This document shows, in pieces, positions 29,239-29,879 of a DNA stretch of 29,879 nt. Location of the stretch: positions 1-29,879 of the IMG/VR virus record IMGVR_UViG_2537562092_000001. One strand, given 5' to 3'. Made by a program: the position numbers and the translations under genes. The stretch comes from a virus (lineage: Duplodnaviria > Heunggongvirae > Uroviricota > Caudoviricetes). Numbering within the stretch: the stretch's first letter is position 1; each line of letters begins with the position of its first letter. The notes under the pieces are model-generated. The model was not told the origin of the DNA, did no database searches, and was given only the letters and a program-made list of their open reading frames with translations.

Positions 29239-29481
29239 ATGTCAGATATCACCGCAAATGTTGTGGTAAGCATGCCTTCGCAACTCTTCACTATGGCGCG
29301 TTCTTTTAAAGCCGTAGCTAATGGCAAAATTTATATCGGTAAAATTGACACTGACCCGGTAAATCCTGAAAACCAGATTCAGGTTTATGTGGAGAACGAA
29401 GACGGCTCTCACGTTCCTGTTCCGCAACCAATCATCATTAATGCTGCTGGATATCCGGTATATAACGGACAGATTGCCAAG
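29239..29481 (+). pseudogene. Tailspike (P22 gp9-like) N-terminal head-binding domain, truncated after codon 81 by IS2
   Basis: [81 protein letters not shown] is near-identical to the P22 tailspike N-terminus. The next base (29482) is the first base of the IS2 terminal repeat. Confidence 0.85.
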
Positions 29482-29879
29482 TGGATTTGCCCCTATATTT
29501 CCAGACACCTGTTATCACTTAACCCATTACTGGCCTGCTGCCGCAGATATTCCCGTGGCGAGCGATAACCCAGTGCACTATGCGGATGCCATTCGTTATA
29601 ATGCTCGAACGCCTCTGCAAGGTTCTTTGCTGCCGTTAACCCGTCTGGTTTAGGCATGATACTGATGTAGTCACGCTTTATCGTTTTCACGAAGCTCTCT
29701 GCTATGCCGTTACTCTCCGGACTCCGCACCGCCGTGTTCTTCGGTTCAAGCCCCAACATCCGGGCAAACTGCCGTGTTTCATTAGCCCGGTAGCATGAAC
29801 CATTATCCGTCAGCCACTCTACTGGAGACGCCGGAAGCTCGTTGCCGAAGCGGCGTTCCACCGCTCCCAGCATGACGTC
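29482..29879 (-). mobile_element. IS2 (right end and 3' part of insD; element continues beyond the window)
   Basis: Terminal sequence TGGATTTGCCCCTATATTTCCAGACA at 29482, followed by the InsD C-terminal coding region. Confidence 0.85.
29493..29879 (-). CDS. insD: IS2 transposase InsD (OrfB), C-terminal ~128 codons; partial at window edge
   Basis: Translation ...[128 protein letters not shown] matches the IS2 InsD C-terminus. Confidence 0.85.

Follow-up and report, generated by a model that had tools for sequence, protein, structure and literature searches.

It is very probable that an IS2 element of 1331 bp entered a tailspike gene by transposition, in a P22-like prophage (Sf6/HK620 type) located at argW in an E. 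coli O23 lineage, and that this was likely a neutral step in the decay of the prophage. The stretch of DNA analysed (29,879 nucleotides, hereafter the window) ends inside the element. Two E. coli strains with complete chromosomes, DETEC-P829 from a human in Guangzhou and F8 from a pig in Guangxi, have exactly the same junction. Over its final 17.4 kb (12438-29879), the window is 100% identical to the first and 99.994% identical to the second.

The insertion as such is already known, as RefSeq annotates two tailspike pseudogene pieces around an IS3-family transposase. In our literature search we found no paper naming both IS2 and tailspike.

The junction and the IS2 copy

The tailspike gene starts with the ATG at 29239-29241 and can be read on the plus strand for 81 codons (29239..29481), the frame ending in QIAK with codon 81 (AAG, Lys) at 29479-29481. 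This 5' fragment, which covers part of the head-binding domain, was recognised by direct reading of the sequence, by Pfam and by its identity to Sf6 gp14 and P22 gp9. The first base of IS2 is 29482, opening TGGATTTGCCCCTATATTTCCAGACACCTGTTATCACTTAA directly after codon 81, so that the terminal repeat begins exactly where the earlier note had placed it (29481/29482). Translation across the junction gives a chimeric, shortened ORF (29239..29568, plus strand, from the ORF list) with the 81 tailspike codons, 28 codons out of IS2 and then a stop. Gene calls on 23 public contigs include precisely this 109-aa product.

The Pfam family Head_binding (PF09008) covers residues 1-113 of the reconstructed tailspike protein (4.3e-67) and profile positions 1-84 on the truncated ORF (7.3e-48). 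Therefore, the break at codon 81 lies inside the head-binding domain, which agrees with the first reading of the sequence. That reading had also described the frame as near-identical to P22 gp9 through codon 81. The homology and the codon are right, but near-identity is ruled out, because only 62 of the 81 residues (76.5%) are identical to P22 gp9, and Sf6 gp14 is closer with 74 of 81 (91.4%). The nearest phages at the DNA level are IME10 (95.3%), Sf101 (93.9%) and HK620 (91.6%). On these identities, the head-binding domain can be assigned to the Sf6/HK620 type, a homologue of P22 gp9 yet not near-identical to it.

Regarding the element, the window itself shows only the right-hand 398 nt of the IS2 copy (29482..29879, minus strand), cut by the window end; without any indel, it agrees with the 3' end of K-12 IS2A at 96.7%. 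Its right inverted repeat (IRR, 41 bp) occupies 29482..29522 on the minus strand, with the outer end at 29482, and agrees with the IRR given in PMC3219604 at all but one position (40 of 41). The 3' part of insD (orfB), encoding the C-terminal part of the DDE transposase, was recognised from the ORF list, Pfam and PGAP on identical DNA at 29493..29879 on the minus strand, with its stop codon at 29493-29495. The minus-strand ORF 29493..29873 matches rve_3 (3.2e-19) and, below the Pfam cutoff, rve (1.8e-06). It reads toward the tailspike start, as had been stated for insD. Both the identity and the orientation of the element were thus read directly.

The full length of the element and its left inverted repeat (IRL) were read in the loci that share the junction. 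The far end of IS2, which the earlier note had suggested looking for, was found in DETEC-P829 and F8, where the element is free of gaps. The copy is 1331 bp long and 95.8% identical to K-12 IS2A (NC_000913.3 381260-382590), with 56 differences and no indels, and its IRL equals that of K-12 over the 42 nt printed. In the identical locus outside the window, the insC product is identical to K-12 InsC, and a full-length InsD departs from that of K-12 at 11 of its 301 residues. The genes insC and insD and the frameshift site CAAAAAAG (A6G window) are intact there. In IS2 the two overlapping frames are joined by -1 frameshifting at the A6G window (PMC3219604), and PGAP labels the identical DNA as an intact 'IS3 family transposase, programmed frameshift' (WP_089541817.1). 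This copy therefore resembles K-12 IS2A in its 1331 bp, its terminal repeats, the InsC protein, the length of InsD, the A6G window and the 5-bp target duplication. It differs in its label, because PGAP calls the K-12-like variant 'IS2 family' and the tailspike variant only 'IS3 family transposase'.

IS2, a common mobile element of E. coli, is present in several copies in these strains, the query matching at 9 places in DETEC-P829, at 13 in F8 and at 37 in LR882057, the last number suggesting an IS2 expansion in that chromosome. The tailspike copies of DETEC-P829 and LR882057 have the same sequence although they lie at different sites, which would fit recent activity of one IS2 lineage. The intact frames, together with identical copies elsewhere in the lineage, suggest that the window-type copy may be active in transposition.

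The decaying prophage and recurrent insertions

The tailspike belongs to the remainder of a P22-like prophage, of which the part from a capsid fragment to gp16 occupies 19860..28767 on the plus strand, as annotated by PGAP on the corresponding DNA of DETEC-P829 (100% identical) and F8 (99.994%). The gene order is a capsid-protein gene fragment without its N-terminus (possibly the scaffold), coat, gp4, gp10, tail needle and gp14, then the ejection proteins gp7-gp20-gp16, mnt and the split tailspike, followed by gtrC-gtrB-gtrA, intS and tRNA-Arg (argW). The tailspike is therefore placed as in P22-like phages, near the end of the prophage: the ejection-protein genes and the immI region precede it, and the conversion genes and the integrase are its neighbours. 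The gene directly upstream of it (28857..29150, minus strand) encodes a Mnt-type repressor, matching Pfam Repressor_Mnt and Arc and called 'Arc family DNA-binding protein' by PGAP; no arc or ant gene lies between mnt and the tailspike in the window. The complete mnt-arc-ant region is present in the related prophages of DEC9B and CUVM3.

What lies left of the capsid-gene fragment is IS debris, directly next to it, and island DNA. Outside the prophage are the left two thirds of the window (1-19868), with a CP4-type island (YeeU-family antitoxin, JAB-domain protein, antirestriction protein, DUF932 protein), part of an autotransporter gene and stacked IS fragments (IS30, IS911, IS66, IS21, IS4 and ISEc31). 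Within this part, 4451-12437 varies among strains carrying the same tailspike insertion.

The PGAP annotation of the identical DNA has no early, immunity, lysis, terminase or portal genes in the prophage remnant. A prophage that lacks its early, lysis, terminase and portal genes cannot form particles, and therefore this is a dead remnant. The prophage has decayed differently in the sister O23 strains: the coat gene of LR882057 is cut by another IS2 (locus L016, 21243-22471), and E10 has a different deletion and an intact tailspike.

As for the route, the element would have moved by copy-out/paste-in, with a figure-of-eight intermediate, then a minicircle and finally a staggered attack on the target that would have duplicated the five bases CCAAG (29477-29481). 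Transposition of IS2 in two steps, figure-of-eight and then minicircle, has been described, and its choice of target possibly follows DNA curvature (PMC3299598). The insertion splits the gene into codons 1-81, continued by the IS2 codons up to the stop, and codons 82-623. The first piece is without the last third of the head-binding domain, the receptor-binding domain is detached from it, and the second piece is left without a start codon and without its upstream context. Gene callers start this 3' piece at Met90, which gives 534 aa, and IS2's own genes read away from it. A new promoter supplied by IS2 was also considered and rejected. The consensus scan found no sites above the number in shuffled sequence and none at the junctions, and by eye the IRR has an outward -35 without a usable -10 in the flank. 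We conclude that the split tailspike is a null allele, and expression of the 3' piece appears unlikely. The prophage may already have lost its left half when the element arrived, and, lacking the genes named above, it probably loses nothing by the insertion. Most likely it was a neutral and recent step of IS-driven prophage decay.

This neutrality has to be weighed against the recurrence of such insertions. A junction query carrying IS2 in both orientations, which reaches about 870 bp from the head-binding domain, detected at least seven separate IS2 events among 5426 complete genomes, all within the first ~900 nt of such a tailspike gene. Two antisense insertions lie close together, at nt 243 in the window type, DETEC-P829 and F8 (duplication CCAAG) and at nt 258 in DEC9B and two bovine strains (CTGTG), and a third antisense one is at nt 722 in GPEC79-13-647 (ATTGT). 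The sense insertions are at nt 399 in A10 (CCGAA), nt 431 in VTB97022v (ATGTC), nt 462 in LR882057 (CGAAA) and nt 882 in 702/18, where the duplication has 14 bp. In six of the seven events, a long open frame reappears once IS2 and one of the 5-bp repeats are taken out; the removal of 5 bp does not suit the 14-bp duplication of 702/18.

Some of these loci deserve a description of their own. In 702/18 (locus L013, 3884-5242) IS2 lies in another P22-like tailspike and is flanked by the 14-bp direct repeat ATCCATCTTCCGAA instead of 5 bp. The nt 258 insertion (loci L002, L011 and L012, corresponding to DEC9B, F2_407_2_2 and 7_33_46A) is 15 nt downstream of the window site in the same orientation, and it represents a separate IS2 lineage in a different tailspike (708 aa) at argW. 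In LR882057 (locus L007, 4670-6000) the tailspike allele of the window was hit by an identical IS2 in the opposite orientation.

If the insertion was not neutral, either IS2 prefers the 5' part of the tailspike gene or lysogens gain by silencing a tailspike directed at their own O-antigen, or by blocking particles. The number of events speaks in this direction, because 10 genomes are affected of about 773 with a tailspike gene of the P22 type, where an estimate uniform over the genome expects about 0.6. In addition, the nt 243 and nt 258 events share their orientation although their IS2 lineages differ by 45 nt, and the possible taste of IS2 for intrinsically curved targets (PMC3299598) could provide a reason. 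Nevertheless, the excess over a uniform expectation is expected anyway, since prophage remnants are more tolerant of insertions than most of the genome, and by its design our search detected insertions only in the vicinity of the head-binding domain. The seven sites are scattered, their orientations are mixed (3 antisense, 4 sense) and no motif is common to the duplications. Moreover, the prophage in the window lineage is incapable of forming particles regardless of the insertion. We therefore consider a non-neutral insertion unlikely.

Two narrower ideas were rejected on the way. An orientation bias came from the design of the query, which had returned same-orientation insertions only; a chimeric query with flipped IS2 gave four opposite-orientation genomes. 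A hotspot was discarded because the sites are scattered and because two of three same-orientation events would fall within 15 nt by chance with an estimated probability of about 0.08. Thus, we have no good evidence of a hotspot or of selection on tailspike insertions.

Tailspikes without their N-terminal domain fold and remain active in vitro. It is very unlikely that the recurrent hits as a group are non-neutral, through target preference or lysogen selection, or that the orphan 534-aa frame from Met90 is expressed as a free O23-specific depolymerase.

Returning to the probably neutral insertion, comparable cases are known in other phages. One is the Shigella serotype-converting phage SfX (U82084.1), a temperate phage of the E. 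coli/Shigella group that converts the O-antigen; IS2 also lies within one of its genes, and the record annotates int as joined around IS2. The difference is that there the integrase was hit and not the tailspike, in a different phage. In the P22-like phage Sf6, IS911, also of the IS3 family, lies in the nin gene 54 and probably entered at the prophage stage (PMC5630979), so that here too an IS3-family element disrupts a gene of a P22-like phage. However, Sf6 stays viable and the gene hit is dispensable, whereas the tailspike IS2 hit an essential virion gene in a prophage that is defective in any case.

The far side of IS2 in sister assemblies

A target duplication of 5 bp is typical of IS2. 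The left copy of the duplication in the window is the CCAAG at 29477..29481, and the right copy, which lies beyond the window, was read in DETEC-P829, F8 and two draft genomes. The two drafts correspond to the two longest contigs with the junction ORF. In the 6 kb retrieved upstream of the tailspike they match the window at 100%. Both have N gaps within IS2, the same CCAAG and more than 4.7 kb after IS2 identical to DETEC-P829; in the draft GCA_000242035.1 a scaffold gap lies 400 nt into IS2. CCAAG flanks IS2 on both sides in DETEC-P829 (locus L001), F8 (L004) and the drafts (L018 and L019). In all four assemblies the IS2 left end is followed by the second CCAAG and then by the remaining 542 tailspike codons, uninterrupted to the normal stop.

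The uninterrupted gene of E10 served as the empty-site control. When IS2 and one CCAAG are removed, a gene of 1872 nt results that is identical to the intact E10 gene at 1872 of 1872 nt, and the empty site of E10 has a single CCAAG and identical 500-bp flanks. The duplication, the uninterrupted remainder and the empty-site allele were all observed directly, and from the three together we conclude that this is a simple insertion and not a deletion. The earlier interpretation of IS2 as inserted in the head-binding domain, with the receptor-binding domain separated from it, is accordingly borne out by the 542-codon remainder, and the 5-bp duplication that it anticipated is there as perfect CCAAG flanks. 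It had named the absence of the rest of the tailspike past IS2 as the sign of a deletion, and in these four assemblies the rest is present.

The window comes from a further strain, because its positions 4451-12437 differ from both DETEC-P829 and F8; they match LR882057, E10 and other O23 strains. For its own genome, we infer the far side of IS2 from the sister assemblies. A simple insertion predicts that, past the window end, the IS2 left end would be followed by CCAAG and TTCGTAACTGTGCAAGG, and that the source genome would have the left end, then CCAAGTTCGTAACTG and the 542-codon remainder.

Alternatively, in the genome from which the window comes, this IS2 copy could border a deletion or an inversion, with the rest of the tailspike gone or elsewhere. 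In favour of this, the window is cut off within IS2 and does not reach the far side, these strains have several IS2 copies, and the second IS2 cutting the coat gene of the sister strain LR882057 is a rearrangement nearby. Two short gut-metagenome scaffolds (L023 and L024) have the exact junction and then unrelated DNA past the IS2 left end; they are probably repeat-induced chimeric joins, and mis-joins at multi-copy IS elements are common in short-read metagenome scaffolds. Against such a rearrangement, every genome assembly that shares the junction (two complete, two draft) has CCAAG in duplicate and the whole rest of the tailspike, and upstream these assemblies are identical to the window to the extent given above (17.4 kb for the complete genomes, 6 kb for the drafts). 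Therefore, a deletion or inversion appears extremely unlikely.

An assembly artefact, with the junction as a chimeric join from a collapsed multi-copy IS, has a practically negligible probability: IS2 is a classic source of assembly breaks and many metagenome contigs bearing the junction stop inside it, but the junction is the same to the base in the complete chromosomes of DETEC-P829 and F8, which were sequenced independently and differ in host and place of origin, it recurs in both drafts and on a total of 23 contigs, and the perfect 5-bp duplication and exact empty-site match are signatures of real transposition.

The receptor-binding domain and the O23 antigen

The simple insertion separated a head-binding domain of the Sf6/HK620 type from a receptor-binding domain with few relatives. 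As a whole, the tailspike is like Sf6 gp14, HK620 gp9 and P22 gp9 in its PF09008 N-terminal domain, its gene position and a predicted beta-rich, beta-helix-like body. It differs from them, apart from the 76.5% head-binding identity to P22, in its receptor-binding domain, which has no match among PDB sequences, where only the head-binding domain matched. Among sequenced phages this domain has no close relative, the best being phage GaoY1-9D with 40% identity, and it occurs in only 16 clusters among 5.8 billion proteins.

PGAP annotates the downstream tailspike piece for 138 nt only, as a pseudogene, in DETEC-P829 (locus L001, 10803-12308) and in the same span of F8 (L004), which leaves about 1.5 kb of uninterrupted tailspike frame without annotation in both genomes. 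The missing annotation is probably owed to the few known relatives of the receptor-binding domain.

The homologues of the domain are fused to N-terminal adaptors of the P22 type, the TSP1/gp66 type or the T7 type. Those with 46-94% identity (P0002, P0006, P0008 and P0010-P0016) stand on adaptors PF18668 (TSP1/gp66 type) and PF03906 (T7 tail-fibre type), and some homologues have a PF12708 match. This variety of adaptors shows that the domain moves between unrelated phage tail architectures.

Regarding its fold, the AlphaFold2 model is weak (mean pLDDT 57.8), although residues 200-580 are beta-rich with blocks mostly at 55-90. The top Foldseek matches of this weak model were the Sf6, P22, CBA120 TSP2 and HK620 tailspikes, with TM-scores of only 0.2-0.4. 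The receptor-binding domain of P22-like tailspikes is a trimeric right-handed parallel beta-helix, and a beta-helix tailspike fold is likely here too, as far as the model goes. We also tried to derive the catalytic type from the structure, and the model was too weak to assign one.

The earlier note had suggested identifying the O-antigen type that the receptor-binding domain would recognise. The domain was found in eight complete genomes, and each of them has the O23 wzy, a gene that occurs in only 21 of the 5426 genomes. The O23 wzy/wzx cluster was found in all eight, the O-antigen cluster of DETEC-P829 being at 40927-45409 of locus L010. The domain travels with the gtrABC glucosylation operon. 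In CUVM3, the same domain and the gtrCBA module belong to another P22-like prophage remnant with its own backbone, located elsewhere in the chromosome between sbcB and dacD (locus L028, 19758-24395), with a tailspike 99.9% identical at the nucleotide level and different ejection-protein alleles. This arrangement looks like an exchange of modules between prophages in O23 hosts, and since CUVM3 would have acquired the module independently, the link with O23 is not due to clonal inheritance alone. Thus, the association with O23 is clear in these genomes, and from this host association the receptor is likely the O23 antigen, probably in its unglucosylated form.

Insertions of IS elements in prophage genes are routine, and actually this tailspike insertion is an ordinary one that carries little weight. 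Taken together, the at least seven IS2 hits in such tailspikes are a small data set on the target choice of IS2. The receptor-binding domain that the insertion cut off is a rare module and, on the association described here, a candidate O23-specific depolymerase.
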